Assembly: GCF_000186305.1 (NCBI RefSeq)
Contig: NW_006536941.1
Coordinates: 4,676-26,640, forward strand
Source of the DNA: Python bivittatus
Lineage: Eukaryota
Length of the DNA: 21,965 nucleotides
Direction of reading: 5' to 3'
Shown: positions 2,561 to 20,584 of the stretch, piece after piece
How positions within the stretch are numbered: position 1 is the first letter of the stretch
Layout: the number at the start of each line of letters is the position of its first letter
Program-made: the position numbers and the translations under genes
The notes under the pieces: model-generated
The model's input: the letters and a program-made list of their open reading frames with translations, nothing else
Told to the model about the DNA's origin: nothing
Databases searched by the model: none

Positions 2561-2656
2561 CCTTTTTTCAATTGCCACGAAGCTTGTAAATTGGGTCACA
2601 ATGGAGTTTTTCAGGCTGAGCTCAATGATGAAGGACTTCAGTTGTTGTTTCTTCAT
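2561..2656 (-). CDS. PARP4: PARP4 exon P
   Basis: Acceptor ccttaactatttag|ATG, donor AAAAGG|gtatgtatg. Encodes MKKQQLKSFIIELSLKNSIVTQFTSFVAIEKR, phase 0 at both ends. It lies in the minus ORF 2456..2656. Further exons are expected below 2561, but I could not place them. Confidence 0.85.
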
Positions 2657-4589: not shown

Positions 4590-4670
4590 CTCATGTTCTG
4601 TTTCATTCTCATCAAGCATTCCTTGTTCATAATCTCTGATAAAGGCTCTTGCTGCAAGTTTGTGGAGCAT
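4590..4670 (-). CDS. PARP4: PARP4 exon O
   Basis: Acceptor ctcttgtccctggtacag|ATG, donor CATGAG|gtatgtagc. Encodes MLHKLAARAFIRDYEQGMLDENETEHE, phase 0 at both ends. Too short for the ORF track; found by hand translation. Confidence 0.85.
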
Positions 4671-5110
4671 CTGTACCAGGGACAAGAGAAGACATCCTGA
4701 TCAGTAATATTAAAACAATTATTCAATAGTTTGGCCTGATCAAAAGTGTATTGAGCAGCTTCCCTCTGAGTGTAAACAGTGTATTGGAAAAGAATTATTC
4801 TCCCTATATCATCAGAGAAAAAAAGAAACTCACCTCAGCTGATCATGAATGGACATCTCTACTTCTAATATTAAAAATCTGTCTTTTGACATTATACACT
4901 GGTTGGCCTAAGGACCCAACATTTCAGGAAGATAGATTTTATTAAATAACTACAACCATTCAACAATTTAATGGGTTAGGATGGGAAATGGAGGAGAAGC
5001 TTTGCAATGCCAGGTCACAGTTTCCTAAAATTAGGCAGGGCTTTGGATTCTAAGACAAAAAGCACTTCAGAATGCTCAGAGACACAAATGTAACCCCTGT
5101 TTGCAACTCC

Positions 5111-6110
5111 TTAAAATAAACATGATTCTACTAACAAAAGATGCAGCTGCTTTAAGGAAGGGCAGACCAAGGCTTCATTTGTGCCGAGAAATGTCTCTGT
5201 ATTCAAAACATAGTCTGCCTCTGGACTGGCAACAGCTGTGACACAATTGGTTCTGTCACTGCCTTCCTCATTTCTTGGCCACATACAGTTTCCAAAGCTT
5301 TTATCCCCAGTTAGGGTCAAAGACAGGGGGAGAATGACAGGCATAATGGTCTTCATAGATCCTATGTAGCTATTTCTCCAGTTGCATCTAACCATGACAT
5401 TGCCTTCATCTCATCCTCAATCCATCTGTGAGACAGCCTGAAATTGTCCTTCGCCGAAAGATGGCTAGATCATGGCTAGACGCACTCTCAGGGGAGCACA
5501 GGTTTAGTGTACCTTCCTTCCTGTAGACAGTAAGGAAGATGACCAGCATATCTCCATCAAGGTCATCTTTCTTACTCTTTAAACTTCCCAAGTCTACTGA
5601 AGAGCTCTTCAGTAGGCTTGCAGAGTTGGAAAGTAGATTCACCCTCTCCACACAAAGGCTCCTGTAAGCACCTGGGGTCATAGCAGCCAGACTCAATATC
5701 TGGCTTGGAACTAGAATTTCCTTAAGAATAAAAGGATTACCGAGGAAAAAGTCCCTACTTCTAAATAATGCTGTTGGATGGAAATAATCTAGCTGTTGGA
5801 ACAAAAATCATTCAACTGAGAGCAGCCCAGTGCTGGAGCCATATCTGATCTCAGCCAATCTTCTTTGTTTATATTTCCAGATGACCAAACTCTGTTTATA
5901 ATTTACAGCTTCAGCTGACTTATTCCTCTTAACCCAATCTTTTACTATCATCTTTGGCTCTAAGTTCATCCCACATCTGCTTTTTCCTGCTTGTGCTGTA
6001 AGACAGGAGATGGAGAATTCTTCAATAGGTAGAGCAACATTCACAATGAGTTGGTGTTCATTGTGATGCATAAAGTACCTTATGCATGCTGCCTTGCAAG
6101 GATGTCCCAC
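5111..6110 (-). pseudogene. decayed ~1 kb coding relic (three consecutive ORFs in three frames), unclassified
   Basis: Minus ORFs 5808..6110 (100 aa), 5406..5804 (132 aa) and 5111..5395 (94 aa) abut end to end, each shifted by one frame. About 330 codons have only two stops, in DNA where stops should occur every ~20 codons. No motif I can assign. Confidence 0.45.
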
Positions 6111-8338: not shown

Positions 8339-8428
8339 ATAACTAAACTAAACTAAACTAAACTAAACTAAACTAAACTAAACTAAACTAAACTAAACTA
8401 AACTAAACTAAACTAAACTAAACCAAAC
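8339..8428. repeat. (AAACT)n microsatellite, ~17 perfect units
   Basis: aactaaactaaacta... runs perfectly from 8341 to 8422. Confidence 0.95.
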
Positions 8429-9030: not shown

Positions 9031-9201
9031 CTGTGTGCAATTGAGGATAAATCCATAGACTAGAAGACGCTCGTGGTTAAATAGAGACTGTATCTGAGCA
9101 GGAGCATATGTAAGTTCAGGTTTTTCTATATCATAATTCTGCCATTCAATGGAAATAGAACTGCACCGTGGAGAAAACATTCTAGTTGCCTGGCTTTCCA
9201 T
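9031..9201 (-). CDS. PARP4: PARP4 exon M: end of vWA domain and post-vWA region
   Basis: Acceptor ttttttgtttccatgtctgtgcag|ATG, donor CACAG|gtaataagc. Encodes MESQATRMFSPRCSSISIEWQNYDIEKPELTYAPAQIQSLFNHERLLVYGFILNCTQ. It lies in the minus ORF 8947..9213. Confidence 0.85.
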
Positions 9202-10019
9202 CTGCACAGACATGGAAACAAAAAATTAGTATTTGTTCCTTTTGTTAAATTATTTTACATAGAGTAATAAAAACACAACAGAATAGAACAAGTGTGAAGA
9301 AATGCTATTTTATAGGGTATTTCATCAAGTGGTTTAACCACATCCATCTTTTTTTAAGTGGATTAGACAAAAGTCTTGAACTTGGGAAACTGAATTGTAA
9401 TAAATGCAAAGGACTAAAATTATTTTTTCCAAATCTAACAGATCAGTTACTACTAATGCTCAGGCATACTGCTCTTTCGTACTGCTAATATCAAATATGA
9501 TTAACACATTTGTAAGAACTTAATTTATATTTATATTTATACACACACACACATAGTAAGCCACTAACAATAGGGCATTTCATACAAGGATCCTGTACCA
9601 GTTTGAATCCAACTCTATAGTTCTGTGTTCTCAGACCATCTCATCTATGCTTAGCAGCTATCTACCCAATTCATCTGTGATGCAACAAAAACTGAAAAAC
9701 AGTGATCTCTTGGTATTCAGTGGCAAAGCACCACAAGCTGGAAATGGGGCTTCCTTGCCTCAGCTAACCTGTGAGTTCCTGAGCTTGAGTAGATTTACCA
9801 TTTGTGTTGAAAGATCTTTAAAGGGGGAAGCCCCCCATCAAAGTAACAGCTCTATTTGTTTTGTTCCTATCTTGCTTCCTTGCTTTCTTAACATATTAAC
9901 ATTTTTTTTCTTTTCCTACCCGCCCCCCCACCACACACAGCATCTTGCTCCTGATGCCTGTCTGCAAGCATTGTTTAGAGGGTAACTCCTCCTCTCGTCC
10001 CACTGCAGCAAATACAACA

Positions 10020-11007: not shown

Positions 11008-11107
11008 CTTTCTCTCCCAGTTATATTTTGATTTCACATCAAAATATTCAAAAGCTCCAGCTCCATATTGCGCTAAAGACCTCAGCATGTGACGATTTGC
11101 TGTAGGA
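11008..11107 (-). CDS. PARP4: PARP4 exon L: vWA domain; ends in a GC-AG intron
   Basis: Acceptor aaatcatcttag|T. Encodes (G)PTANRHMLRSLAQYGAGAFEYFDVKSKYNWERK. The donor is AAG|gcaagtat, an exact match to the GC-AG consensus AG|GCAAGT. No GT donor gives the phase 0 that exon M needs. Confidence 0.8.
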
Positions 11108-11640
11108 CTAAGATGATTTGTAAAGATTTACAATTTATAAAAATCTGCAATAGAGAGTCAACCTGATCAAGGAAAAATTAATGTTATGTACAACATATGC
11201 TCTGCATAGTTACATTAGTCCACACATCTAATTTACTAGTGTAAGTTGAGCATCCAAGGAGTGGGGAGGGGAAGGCCAGAAGAGGTGACAAGGAGTAACC
11301 TGTAATGGTATGTGGGAATGACCTTGGGAGACAGGAGGGCAAGCCACAGACTAACAACTGGCATGTAAAAGGCTTCTCGGCCCCTCAGAAGGAGAGGTGA
11401 TGTGGGAAATGTTTCAGAAGGGATCCTCCCTTGTTTTCTGGAGAGTAAAAGGAGAGGAGGGGAGAAATACTTTCAGTCTTGCAAGATTCTGTTAATGTAA
11501 CCTTACAATAAAGATAGAGCTAGTACTCCTGGTTGTGCTTCTTGTCTGGACTACCTCACAGGTCTAAACTCACCAATTTGTTTTATGGTAAAAGGGTGTT
11601 TTTGCCTACCTGTTAGATCCCTATTGTTGCCCTATAGCAG

Positions 11641-11751
11641 TGTTTCTCAACCTCAGCAACTTTAAGATGTGTGAACTTCAATTCCCAGAATTCTGGGAAT
11701 TGGGGCTGGCTGGGGAATTCTGGAAGTTAAAGTTGCTGAGGTTGAGATACA
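11641..11751. repeat. hairpin-forming inverted-repeat element (MITE/SINE-like)
   Basis: tctcaacctcagcaactttaa at 11645-11665 is the exact reverse complement of ttaaagttgctgaggttgaga at 11727-11747. An inner palindrome cccagaattctggg/ggaattctgg is also present. Confidence 0.6.
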
Positions 11752-11824
11752 TTGCTCTATAGTTTGCCAAAACTATGTTTTGCAATTCTATCTGGATGTA
11801 AGTTTTCACTGAATGCGCACTTAC

Positions 11825-12012
11825 CCCACTGCACATGTGAATATTCTAGTGTGCGTTGCATTTTTCTTCACAGTCTGCAGGGTCAAGCCTTCATTCTGAA
11901 TATGTCCATCAGATATAAGAATAACGTTGCGCTTGCTTTCAGCAGGGTACAGCAAACTCAGATAGTGCAATGCCTTCCATAAGTGTGAGTCTCCCATTGT
12001 AGCTGTAGCTGA
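11825..12012 (-). CDS. PARP4: PARP4 exon K: vWA domain
   Basis: Acceptor ttaatttttag|TCA, donor GTGGG|gtaagtgcg. Encodes SATATMGDSHLWKALHYLSLLYPAESKRNVILISDGHIQNEGLTLQTVKKNATHTRIFTCAV(G). The vWA signature LISDG and the ...CAVG strand are present. Confidence 0.85.
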
Positions 12013-12552: not shown

Positions 12553-12748
12553 TTGTCCCAAATTTGATAACACTTATTTTTCTTGTCAAATGACATGAGT
12601 TTAGAGCGTGTAATGCAATCTCCTTGGCTTGCTGGATTGCTGAACCTGCCATGGAATTGGAGCAATCTAGGCAGATAACAGCTTCACCATGGAGGCTTAA
12701 AAGATCAAATGGGTCTTCAAACTCTGGTTGAAATACAAGCATGCAGGC
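12553..12748 (-). CDS. PARP4: PARP4 exon I: start of the vWA domain, with the metal-ion-dependent adhesion site (MIDAS)
   Basis: Acceptor cctttcttttag|GCC with an in-frame stop directly upstream. Donor ACAA|gtaaggc (phase 1 end). Encodes ACMLVFQPEFEDPFDLLSLHGEAVICLDCSNSMAGSAIQQAKEIALHALNSCHLTRKISVIKFGT. The D-x-S-x-S MIDAS motif DCSNS lies at 12653-12667. Confidence 0.85.
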
Positions 12749-13548
12749 CTAAAAGAAAGGAAATGGGAAAAAATCAACCAAGAGCAGGTCATCTTAAATG
12801 AGAGGCAGATGTCAGCCAAGACAGAAGACACACCACAGGTCACAAAACCTGGTATTTGCTGTGGTTCAGAGACAGACAAGTGACCTGTCAGGATTCTGTG
12901 TTTGAATGTCATCAATTCCAACATTCTGAACATTTTTCTGAATTAAGGAAGCACTAAGTAGCCTAAATAGACAGTACAAGGAGGGCTGGCACCTTAATGG
13001 TATTAGTGGATGCTTTTCCACTTTCTGTGGTATACTAGTTACCTAGGAATTCTTGCAGGTTCCTAGAATTTCTTGGAGATGGCATTGTATCCAAGCTGAA
13101 CTTATAGATCTTTTTAATCAGTAAAAACCAGTACTATATCCCAGTACTGACACTAGCTTTAAAGGACAGATTTTCTTCAGGGACACAGCAGGCAAAGAAA
13201 GGACTTATTCCTCTTTGACCCCACTAATTATCATTCTCTCACACACACTCCTTTCAAACACACACACACAGACACATTTTTAAAATGCAAAGACATACTT
13301 AATATCAGGACATTGGGACACTAGGAGTACAATCAAAACCTCATTAGGACAACTCTTGCACTGTCGCCATAGATCGATTGACTTAGATGCTATTGAATGG
13401 CTTCCTATAGTGCAAAATGGAAAACGGATTTTGCTATTGTTCAAACAGCCTATCATTCCATCCATGATATTCAAGATGAGACCATATTTAGCAACTTTTC
13501 AAATTTTTCCTTCCAGAGTGTTCCGCGAGATAATAGTTAATCCTTTAT

Positions 13549-14082
13549 GTGGTTTTGCTGTTTCCAGACGCTATTCCAACACCAACTGCAACAGAAGCTA
13601 ACAAGCCTTCCCCCCCTCACAAGACCTTGAAAAAGCAAGGCAGTGGGAGTCAATTTTCTCCTCAACCAGACAGTATGACCAATCCAGCTGAAGCAGACCT
13701 TACCTGTGCCTTTGGCTCCCTGCCCAGGAAGGAACAAGATAACACTATTTTTAAACTAGAAAATCTTAAGAAAACCTTACTGGACTCCATTGCTATTGCA
13801 GAACCCCTCATTGATTTTGTGTCTCCAACTACTGACCCTAATTACTATCAGCTGGTGGATATAGATCTGGAGGAAAATCGATACCCAAATAACAACTGCT
13901 CTAGCCTTTATGAGATGAATGGGGTCTTCCCTGGAGAGCACCAGTCTATGCAAATAACTGAGGAGGCAGTCTTCCCAAGACCACAGACAGATGCTGACCA
14001 ACGCCTAGTGGATACTAGATCTCCTCCACATGATGGGTTGTCTCCACATTCTGCGGATTCCCCTCACCATATTCCATAAAAA
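13549..14082 (+). CDS. intact 176-codon ORF of the LINE fragment (ORF1-like, unclassified)
   Basis: No stop across 534 nt in AT-rich DNA. It begins at GTG with a TAG stop directly upstream; the first ATG is at codon 44. Pro/Ser-rich ends. No similarity to L1 ORF1p that I can recognise. Confidence 0.4.
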
Positions 14083-14139
14083 TCAGACATGAACACATCT
14101 GACTCCCCTGATCCTTCATCTGTTGAGAAATGACTGAAT

Positions 14140-14412
14140 ATGTCTCACCATGACCCTCCCTCACCTAGTGTTTCTACCCCACCCCTTACAGGTGTTGTTA
14201 AACATTCAGCAATTCACATATTATTGTGGAATCTTGCTGGATGGAAAAACAAACTACATGAGTGTTCTGATTTTCTGTCTAACCATGATTTGATTGCAGT
14301 CCAAGAGACCTGGTTAACTGCTGATGATGAGCAGATCTCAATCCCTGGCTTTAAATCCTGGTTCACTCCAGCTTGGAAATTAAAAGGAGGTTTGGCCATT
14401 TTGATTACTTAA
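14140..14412 (+). pseudogene. truncated LINE ORF2 (AP-endonuclease N-terminus only)
   Basis: Motifs LLWNLAGW, DLIAVQETWL and GGLAILI, then a stop. No reverse-transcriptase motifs downstream in any frame. Confidence 0.6.
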
Positions 14413-15528
14413 TATCATGTCTAGTTTGGTCCTAAAAGTAGATATTATGTATCACAGTATTTAAATTAAAAAAATAAAAAAATCACCTCACTATCTTCAT
14501 CTGGATGTTTTTCTACCCACATTCTGGGCAAATATACATCACCAATCAGGATTTCCATTGCAAAGCCACTAGTGTCCAAGAAACTGCCTTCAGTAGTACA
14601 AACCACTGCTTTGCAGTCTGTTTTCTAAATGACGGGAATATGCAAGGAAAAAAAAATGCTGTAAGAAAACTTGAATTATTTCAGCCTGATCTTTTTCAGA
14701 CATATCTGTTCAGCTACAAGCACTACTAAAAGGGTGGGGGAATAAAATCTTGCAAAATAGGATTTTACTACCCTGAAATCTTGTCCTCCATTCTCTCTTC
14801 GTACTTCTCCACCCACCTGCTGACCAAAAGGGGATTATTTCCCTTTAGATTTTCATTTCAATTTTTTAAAAATTCTACAAACTCTAGAGCAGGGTTTTTC
14901 AAATTGTGTTTTGTTGATGAATTTGATGGGGTTCCATGAGAAACTAAGGGCAAGAAAAAAAATAAGTTCACTCTAACACAGCCAATTTTCTATCACTAGA
15001 GCTCTGCATCTTGATCAAAAGTTCTGGGAAGTTTCTGAATAACAGGTTCTACAGCCTGAAGAAGTTTGAAAACCTCTACTCTAGAGTGCCCCACAAGCCT
15101 GTTGATACCTTTCTCTTCTGAAAAGGTGATAATAATTTAGCAACAACAGTCACAGTCTAACCTTGGAAATAAAATAAATTATTCTGGCAAGATTGCCTGC
15201 TCTAAAATACTGTGCAGGGGTCCCACGCAAGAGTTTATTTTGATGAAATTGTGCAAAGCCTGATTTAGAAACCTTCATCGTTTTTCAAGCTATTGATATT
15301 TTAATGTTGCATTAAGCGCTTTGCTTACCTTTATTTTAAGCTGATGTGTCCAACTACTAATGTTATTAATTTTGAAGGGCATTTCAATGGACATTTCTAA
15401 ACTGAACTCTCTGTCATAAGATAAAGAGAAGCCACATACAGGTTAGGACTCGGCTGAGATATAATACAAACTTAGATAAGTAGGCAGATATCAGGGTTTT
15501 GTTTTTTTTAAAGAATCCATTACTGGAC

Positions 15529-16931: not shown

Positions 16932-17096
16932 CTGCGTGTTTTCATTTAGTGCTTTGTCTTGTTGCCAAGGAGCCACAGCAGCTGGCAAGTGAAAGCAAAG
17001 GTTTCCTTTCTCATAACTGAGCTCTGTGATGTAGGAGATCTTGATGAGCACCTTTGTTGAAGGCGGCAAGTTTCCAACAGAAACAGTAAAAATGTC
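16932..17096 (-). CDS. PARP4: PARP4 exon D: VIT domain C-terminal part
   Basis: Acceptor attacttcatag|GAC. Encodes DIFTVSVGNLPPSTKVLIKISYITELSYEKGNLCFHLPAAVAPWQQDKALNENTQ. Two donors are possible. CAG|gtcagt at 16932 ends in phase 0. CAGGTCAG|gtgtgc at 16927 ends in phase 2. Only the second keeps the frame with the best next exon. Confidence 0.8.
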
Positions 17097-18806: not shown

Positions 18807-19499
18807 ATGTAGCAGCATCTTTCTTATTCTTTTAAACACTTTATAGTCAGGACGCAGATGCTCTTGCCCACTTGCTCAGATGCCCACTGAATTACTTTTA
18901 TTTTAAAAAATTATTATTCTCTTTTAAAATACAGTGGTACTTATTCTCATATAAGAAATATCACTTATTATAAAGCTGGAAGCTCTGCCATTACTATATC
19001 TAGGGTCCAAAATTATCTTGTTTCACCACTGCTGTATTTCCTCTTTAAATACTAGGCTGTTCTTTGCAGGAGTACAGTTCAAGCTATCAAAAATCAATAC
19101 ATCCTAGGAGATCTTTTCCTCTCATTGCTCTTTCAACTAATATCAGGGCCTGGTGGAGTTGGACCATTACCTGGACCACGAGGATGGTCAAAGGACCACC
19201 CAAGCCAATACTCTCTATGGCAATTTATCTGCTGCATCTCTAGCAATAGGGAGACCAATATAGGAGACTATATATGAAAGACTGCTGAAGAGAATCAAGC
19301 ATCAACAAAACCGGTCAATTGCATGCTTTCACCATGGAAAAAACAGATTGCTGGCTTGGAGGATGTTATCACAGTTCTCTTGACAGCCTAGAAAAGCCTT
19401 CCCCAACAGGCTGGGAGCAAAGGGGGTTGTATCCAACAAATCCAAGTTGGGAAATATTGGCCTAGAATCATCCTTCTTTCTGCCACTGCATCAGCTTAC

Positions 19500-19631
19500 C
19501 TCTCCTATTATATGCTTTCCTTTAATGAACGCTTCAAATCCACATACAGCAGCTGTGTCATCCAAAGGAAAGACATATTTGGCCTCAATGGGATCCCTTG
19601 TTTCATTTTCATAGGTCTGAAACACCACAAC
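19500..19631 (-). CDS. PARP4: PARP4 exon B: VIT domain core
   Basis: Acceptor ttatatttcag|GTT, donor GGAGAG|gtaagctg. Encodes VVVFQTYENETRDPIEAKYVFPLDDTAAVCGFEAFIKGKHIIGE, the canonical VIT motif (EA.Y.FPL...AV..F.A.I.GK.I.G) seen in ITIH, VWA5A and PARP4. Confidence 0.85.
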
Positions 19632-20030: not shown

Positions 20031-20395
20031 TTTTTAATAATATTTTTATTAAAGTTTAAAAATGCAAAGATAAAAAACTAATACAAACTAAGAAAAATAT
20101 AAAAAGCAAAAAGAAAGAATGAAAAGGGAAAAGGGAAAAGGAAAAAAAAGGGAGGAGGAAAAAGAAAAAAACATACACACATACACACACACATATATAC
20201 ACACACATCAGCATATGTTTCTTTATATATTCTTTTTTCTTTATATATTTTTCTTTTTCCTCCTCCCCCTTTTTTTCTTCTTTTCCCTTTGCACTTTTTA
20301 TTCTTTCTTTTTTTCTTTTTATATTTCTCTTAGTTTTAGTTTTTTATCTCTGTATTTTAAAACTTTAATAAAAAATATTATTAAAAAAGGGATAT
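20031..20395. repeat. large inverted repeat (~145 bp arms) flanking a CA/TA microsatellite; the purine-rich arm mirrors the pyrimidine-rich arm
   Basis: The reverse complement of 20031-20171 aligns at about 85-90% with 20241-20395 (shared blocks ctttttcctcctccc and tcttagtttt...ttttttatct...ttttaaactttaataaaaaatattatt). The spacer 20172-20240 is acatacacacatacacacacacatatatacacacaca. Confidence 0.8.
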
Positions 20396-20459
20396 GCTTA
20401 CACTTATTCAACAAAATAGTCAGCATTCCTAGGAAAAACAAAAAACAAAAAGAATTTTA

Positions 20460-20584
20460 CCTCTGCTACAAAGTCTATTATTCTTCCTTTGATTCGAATA
20501 TCTTTAAGAGGAATTGGATTTCCAGCTCTGTCCATGAGACCAGCAGAAATATCATTCAATAGATCACGGCTTGGTATTGAATAA
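20460..20584 (-). CDS. PARP4: PARP4 exon A': linker and start of VIT domain
   Basis: Acceptor ctctcatttag|AT, donor GCAGAG|gtaaaattc. Encodes (D)YSIPSRDLLNDISAGLMDRAGNPIPLKDIRIKGRIIDFVAE. The phase fits exon A (G+AT=D) and exon B. IPLKDIRIKGRIIDFVAE matches the first strand of a VIT domain. Confidence 0.7.

Follow-up and report, generated by a model that had tools for sequence, protein, structure and literature searches.

Judged by its homologies, the segment at positions 13308–14405 of the window, i.e. of the whole 21,965-nt stretch of DNA analysed here, is a dead fragment of an APE-type non-LTR retrotransposon (LINE). Its 3' truncation probably dates from the insertion itself, in which case the fragment would be a tailless retrocopy generated by internal priming and joined to the target before its 5' end was reached. 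An origin at insertion is favoured because a 12-nt direct repeat, a putative target-site duplication (TSD), brackets both ends of the homology with other copies.

A LINE fragment in an intron of PARP4

All of the window falls within an orthologue of PARP4 (vault PARP), since nine minus-strand exon-like segments align with residues 639–1181 of the human protein (E=6e-130), and its composition is vertebrate-like (GC 37%, CpG o/e 0.13). The LINE fragment is antisense to the gene, in the intron between the exons at ~15329–15406 and ~12554–12733 (Table 1), and is ordinary junk DNA for this locus, a dead intronic repeat by which PARP4 is little affected and whose sole unusual trait is a 3' end that seems never to have been inserted. 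Elsewhere, the window contains an (AACTA)n microsatellite (17.6 copies, 8341–8428), a purine/pyrimidine-rich low-complexity block (20114–20320) that gives rise to a spurious 147-aa ORF (20119–20562) and two palindromic stretches, found by reverse-complement self-comparison at 11633–11759 (~127 nt, 70% identity) and 5589–5620 (32 nt, 94% identity). Self-comparison of the window detected no second LINE copy. Rfam (at gathering and permissive thresholds) and tRNA searches gave no matches, and neither an HDV-like ribozyme nor a SINE head was found at the 5' end of the fragment.

Table 1. Position, strand and supporting evidence of the features discussed in the text (window coordinates)
Feature	Position	Strand	Evidence or remark
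PARP4 exons, VIT and vWA domains	19497–19631, 16932–17096, 15329–15406, 12554–12733, 11824–12012	-	Alignment to human PARP4
PARP4 exons, continued	11008–11109, 9031–9207, 4590–4679, 2561–2656	-	Alignment to human PARP4
PARP4 vWA exon	12554–12733	-	Matches human PARP4 residues 860–919 (E=3e-10)
5' copy of the 12-nt direct repeat TACTTAATATCA, putative TSD	13296–13307	+	12/12 match with 14406–14417; ends where L002/L011 homology begins
LINE fragment, putative insert of 1098 bp	13308–14405	+	L002 and L011 are homologous and colinear over 13308 to ~14400
Conserved ORF1 coding domain, frame 3 (GHWDTRSTIK...FPSRVFRE), 74 codons, no in-frame ATG	13308–13529	+	Gapless alignment with L002 20–241 and L011 1069–1290
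Poorly conserved linker, frameshifted at least once (frame 3 to frame 1)	13530–13680	+	5' domain and core split between frames in the window
ORF1 remnant, 176 codons	13549–14079	+	GTG start behind an in-frame stop; no Pfam family
Conserved ORF1 core (AFGSLPRKEQDNTIFKLENLKKTLL...AEPLIDFVSP)	13681–13842	+	Matches P0003 (65–66% identity), P0005, L002 and L010
TAA, probably premature ORF1 stop	14077–14079	+	18 codons ahead of the junction stop
ORF1 stop of the family (TGA, next codon CTG), in frame with ORF2	14131–14136	+	TGA CTA/CTG at the homologous junction in L002, L001, L006 and L011
ORF at the start of ORF2, 90 aa	14140–14412	+	Reads open to TAA 14410–14412
ORF2 start: N-terminal extension and approximately the first third of an APE-type endonuclease (LLWNLAGW...QETWL...GGLAILI)	14140–14405	+	Pfam, P0001 alignment, ExoIII/APE profiles
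3' copy of the 12-nt direct repeat TACTTAATATCA	14406–14417	+	12/12 match with 13296–13307; holds ORF2 stop TAA 14410–14412

An earlier note on this DNA had reported two ORFs of 176 and 90 codons, the first starting at a GTG behind an in-frame stop, and both are present as described. They share a single frame in which only TAA 14077 and TGA 14131 intervene, and the 176-codon frame (180 codons from stop to stop) is the longest open frame of the window. In composition-preserving shuffles, the longest open frame had a median of 123 codons and a 95th percentile of 158, with 185 or more in 1% of trials. The same note had recognized in the second ORF the first ~90 codons of an ORF2 endonuclease, an identification that is borne out by three lines of evidence. 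First, the 90-aa ORF aligns with positions 2–76 of the 225 of Pfam Exo_endo_phos (E=2e-4) with 21.7 bits, just below the cut-off of 24.5. Second, its best match in a library of 1.84 billion proteins (P0001, E=7e-14, 56% identity) is itself a clear Exo_endo_phos protein (E=8e-11) whose domain extends to the GDFN motif. Third, a profile built from the ORF and its relatives matches ExoIII/APE structures in the PDB (best E=8.5e-5); with the L1 endonuclease structure, the endonuclease profile reached only E=0.74. The segment does align to LINE ORF2 proteins, of which it retains the first ~88 codons, about one-third of the endonuclease. It stops short of the GDFN and SDH motifs and carries a six-codon deletion relative to other copies (AWKLK------GGLAILI against ARKFKSKGRASGGLCVF). 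That ORF2 then breaks off without reverse transcriptase (RT) motifs was also correct, no endonuclease or RT similarity having been found past 14405 or elsewhere in the window. An apparent extension of the endonuclease to 14574 in a tblastn of P0001 ('SSSGCFSTHI' against 'SSSPCFSPDI') was discarded, since its Smith–Waterman score was equalled in other frames (shuffle p ~0.1), and downstream similarity in general was no better than in shuffled controls (p ~0.1–0.9).

Relatives were found only by exhaustive search. A word-indexed protein search with a 281-aa concatenate of ORF1 and the endonuclease found nothing, while HMMER run over 1.84 billion representative proteins returned nine matches, each a short ORF in a short record of ENA, Logan or UniRef. 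The endonuclease part accounts for seven of them and a ~50-aa core of the 176-aa ORF (AFGSLPRKEQDN...AEPLIDLVSP) for two, and the only named relative is P0003, an uncharacterised protein of the coral snake Micrurus paraensis (UniRef A0A2D4KN01). An exact-match look-up of the window ORFs in public assemblies yielded no record. Relatives of the fragment are present in at least eight independent public assemblies, and both ORFs are represented among them. Two of these loci, L002 and L011, are colinear with the window (5' domain, core, single TGA, endonuclease ORF), and a third, L004, has N- and C-terminal parts of the endonuclease followed by a segment aligning to the start of an RT (L007 residues 532–640, E=4e-16). 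A metagenome scan also yielded two distant relatives, L005 and L007, which are full-length LINEs with both Exo_endo_phos and RVT_1 domains. Since the relatives share the same layout (upstream ORF, in-frame TGA, endonuclease) and one of them runs into RT, the family is an endonuclease-plus-RT LINE of which the window copy is a fragment. In L004 (Logan SRR32623559, 53–697), an internal portion of the endonuclease is missing, '...GRARGS' being joined in frame to the C-terminal 'VIDYIF...SDH' ahead of the RT, which makes it either a deletion derivative or a spliced transcript.

The length of the 176-codon frame, together with a relative that is transcribed in a snake, where it figures in the transcriptome as an 'uncharacterized protein', could be read as the mark of a host exon or of a domesticated LINE-derived gene, for which a pyrimidine tract and AG at 13555–13568 would provide the splice acceptor. 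This is extremely improbable. The homology passes straight through the putative acceptor in another frame, for which reason a coding exon beginning there was rejected, and the fragment has two in-frame stops and a frameshift relative to other copies, only one-third of an endonuclease without the catalytic GDFN or SDH motifs, and an antisense position within a PARP4 intron.

The ORF1 region and its junction with ORF2

Upstream of ORF2, the sequence is homologous to the ORF in front of the endonuclease of L002 and L011, and its substitutions follow a coding pattern, but it is not the intact ORF1-like frame that had been proposed. A further coding domain of 74 codons lies upstream in a different frame. 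Over its 222 nt the window, L002 and L011 align without a gap, and amino acid identity is 35–40/74 in frame 3 versus 16–20/73 in the other frames; variable columns are distributed over the three codon positions as [41,33,63] (p=0.005), and frame 3 is free of stops in the window and in L002. Since the 5' domain and the core are held in one open frame of 348 codons in L002 and in different frames in the window, the window copy must have suffered at least one frameshift, within 13530–13680. The CpGs from which a young 5' UTR had been postulated do exist upstream of the 176-codon ORF (13365, 13375, 13524 and 13526). However, they fall in this coding sequence, as shown by its codon-position bias and gapless conservation in three copies, and CpG o/e is 0.18 in the insert versus 0.13 in the window, so that the insert is not CpG-rich overall.

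No recognized ORF1 domain, nor any Pfam ORF1 family such as Transposase_22, was detected in the upstream region, and hhalign comparisons of the 5' domain with other LINE ORF1s were not significant (E=0.23 and 0.43). An RRM-like fold lacking its first strand was suspected, with a single-sequence AlphaFold pLDDT of 56.7, and Foldseek comparison of this model with the PDB gave no match below E=0.03.

The 3' part of ORF1 is probably damaged as well. TAA 14077 is probably premature rather than the ORF1 stop of the family, because the ORF1 stop of the relatives has its counterpart in TGA 14131, beyond which the residues align too (LNMSHHDPPSPS in the window, LYEPHHSTIHPS in L002). With a frameshift, this premature stop and the six-codon deletion, and lacking RT as well as the catalytic motifs GDFN and SDH, the fragment is, on these grounds, unable to encode anything functional.

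The conserved junction deserves attention in its own right. In the window, L002, L001 and L006, ORF1 and ORF2 are in the same frame, with a single TGA followed by CTA or CTG between them (L002 1046–1051, L001 1624–1629, L006 1687–1692; the L011 junction is at 1977–1984), and in L006 there is no ATG between the junction stop and the endonuclease motif. UGA-CUA is among the classical contexts for read-through. ORF2 may thus be made as an ORF1–ORF2 fusion by read-through of UGA-CUA/G. Termination–reinitiation is suggested as an alternative means of ORF2 expression by L011, which has the same GAGAAATGACTGA string but whose endonuclease is read in the frame set by the ATG of an overlapping ATGA; an ATGA overlap is found in the window as well.

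Ends of the copy and origin of the 3' truncation

Both ends of the copy could be mapped by homology, independently of the repeat. At the 5' end, position 13308 is the exact start of homology with L011, a locus that extends for another 1068 nt upstream, and homology with L002 starts from the same base. At the 3' end, homology of the endonuclease ceases at ~14400. The two copies of TACTTAATATCA, which the earlier note had overlooked, immediately adjoin these ends, and they most plausibly represent a TSD around the 1098-bp insert, the flanks (...GCAAAGACA TACTTAATATCA TGTCTAGTTTGG...) then corresponding to an empty site with a single 12-mer. It is solely this coincidence with both homology ends that makes the repeat convincing. 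Exact 12-mers repeated at a spacing of 300–2500 nt are frequent in the AT-rich 22-kb window (~10 of them), while the empirical probability of a repeat of at least 12 nt at two such pre-defined boundaries is ~2e-4. The reconstructed empty target, AGACA-TACTTAATATCA-TGTCT, has 5-nt inverted repeats around the 12-mer (13291–13307 with 14418–14422), which may be a coincidence. There is neither an A-run nor a microsatellite at 14405 that could be a 3' tail, since 14394–14405 still codes for endonuclease and the repeat begins right after it. An A-rich run at 14463–14483 was considered as a LINE tail and rejected, because it falls beyond the repeat and has no flanking repeat of its own.

The copy is probably truncated at its 5' end too, starting within ORF1, because it begins in coding sequence with no in-frame ATG. 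The description of the fragment as the 5' portion of a LINE therefore holds in that it consists of material from the 5' half and lacks the 3' end, but what is present is an internal piece, from which the complete 5' end is probably absent. L002 and L011 may have five further codons in common upstream (N.[VI]NR) that are missing from the window. In L002, a mere 19 nt of contig precede the point equivalent to 13308, which could alternatively place 13308 near the natural 5' end of the element. In L011, a 175-codon open frame (419–943) is found directly upstream of the 5' domain on the same strand, a length that 0/500 shuffles reach; it is possibly the N-terminal part of the family ORF1, although no homologue was found among the fetched loci.

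The following scenario would account for these features. Target-primed reverse transcription would have started at an internal position of the LINE RNA, within the endonuclease-coding region, instead of at its 3' end. The cDNA would have been extended for ~1.1 kb towards the 5' end and joined short of it. The outcome would be a retrocopy truncated at its 3' and probably also its 5' end, with no 3' tail and flanked by a TSD. Two points count against internal priming: tailless retroposition is known from the relaxed L1 system of therians, to which the LINE does not demonstrably belong, and the target reads ACA/TACTT, which differs from the L1 target consensus, TT/AAAA. As for age, the perfect repeat and the long open frame argue against a very old insertion, while CpG o/e of 0.18, the frameshift, the stop and the deletion show that it is not fresh either.

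Alternatively, an ordinary LINE insertion might have lost its 3' (and perhaps its 5') part later, by genomic deletion or rearrangement, the 12-nt repeat being coincidental. Deletions are common in old intronic repeats, the copy shows other signs of decay (frameshift, stop, six-codon deletion) and, as seen above, exact 12-mers do recur in this window. Nonetheless, this is rather unlikely, given that the repeat adjoins both independently mapped homology ends (empirical P=2e-4) and that after a deletion there would be no reason for the 5' flank to recur at the 3' breakpoint. Capture at the DNA level is another scenario, in which LINE DNA or cDNA from another place would have been patched into a staggered double-strand break, or acquired by template switching during repair, with fill-in of the overhangs producing the 12-nt duplication and no part played by the element's own target-primed reverse transcription. 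It would account for truncation at both ends, the missing 3' tail and the flanking duplications, and it fits a target unlike a known endonuclease consensus. However, TSDs of 10–20 nt are typical of LINE-mediated insertion, and no filler or other non-LINE sequence is visible at either junction. Sequence alone is unable to separate DNA capture from internal priming, but we consider capture improbable.

If truncation at insertion is the preferred reading, one might still ask whether the 3' end is peculiar to this copy or belongs to a family of such copies. In a non-autonomous half-LINE family comparable to mammalian HAL1, the mobile unit would itself end in the endonuclease and be mobilized in trans. 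HAL1, as cited in PMC5322556, provides a precedent, ORF1 sequence is kept while ORF2 function is absent, and the called ORFs of several relatives end near the same endonuclease position. However, the stops in these relatives are point mutations or frameshifts, beyond which the endonuclease goes on in L003, L002 and L006, so that a systematic truncation point (whether caused by an intron or by a half-LINE structure) was dismissed. Moreover, neither poly(A) nor any other 3' tail is present at 14405, ORF1 is both broken and startless, and the window holds no second copy. A half-LINE family is thus very improbable.

Significance and comparison with known systems

If its 3' end was indeed skipped at insertion, this LINE copy is a clean example of an event in whose place standard repeat annotation tends to see a later deletion, and should many such copies be found in the host genome, they would inform how strictly the LINE reverse transcriptase recognises its own 3' end. 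The UGA-CUA junction is perhaps the more promising lead, as translation of LINE ORF2 is understood for a few elements only and a read-through fusion, if true, would be an unusual expression strategy for a LINE. Similarly, a tailless insertion by a non-L1 LINE in a non-therian host, if true, would widen the reach of a process that is ascribed to the therian L1 machinery. Taken jointly, the proposal of a read-through ORF1–ORF2 fusion, or of a tailless and internally primed insertion by a non-L1 LINE in a non-therian host, is nevertheless an improbable one.

In its general layout, the window copy resembles other APE-type LINEs. It has an upstream ORF and then an ORF2 with an APE/ExoIII-like endonuclease at its start (WN..G, QETW and GG motifs), its relatives carry an RT after the endonuclease, and it is flanked by a putative TSD of the variable-length kind. 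Unlike these elements, it has no RT, no catalytic core of the endonuclease and no 3' tail (poly(A), microsatellite or 3' UTR), and its ORF1 region belongs to no Pfam ORF1 family and has no significant similarity to other LINE ORF1s. Marks of the L1 clade were not found in the window copy, which has neither Transposase_22 nor poly(A) and whose target is not TT/AAAA. LINE insertions that occur independently of the endonuclease, at DNA breaks, may likewise be 3'-truncated and devoid of poly(A), but they reportedly lack TSDs in most cases, whereas the window copy has a perfect 12-nt repeat.

HAL1 is similar in that it is LINE-derived, has kept ORF1, has lost ORF2 function and is flanked by TSDs (Bao & Jurka 2010, cited in PMC5322556). 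HAL1 differs, however, in having an intact ORF1 and a poly(A) tail and in numbering thousands of copies of one structure, while the window copy has a broken, startless ORF1, no tail and a piece of endonuclease, and its relatives continue into ORF2.

The closest parallel is provided by the 3'-truncated, tailless and TSD-flanked retrocopies generated by internal priming, which are a documented class (Schmitz et al. 2004; Noll et al. 2015, PMC5322556). Among human L1 with TSDs, 708 are full-length, 90 are 3'-truncated and 5,593 are 3'/5'-truncated tailless copies, a form reported to be common in human (Noll et al., PMC5322556). The signature of internal priming is a target complementary to the RNA at the priming point; at this position L002, the nearest relative, differs from the window copy, to which it is just 52–68% identical at the nucleotide level. 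This class has been described for the relaxed L1 machinery of therians, whereas the element in the window is not demonstrably an L1 and has its nearest named relative in a snake. In its structure, however, the window copy conforms well to the class: its 3' truncation exceeds the minimum of at least 10 nt, it has no oligo(A), and its 12-nt repeat is within the 8–35 nt range of the TSDs.
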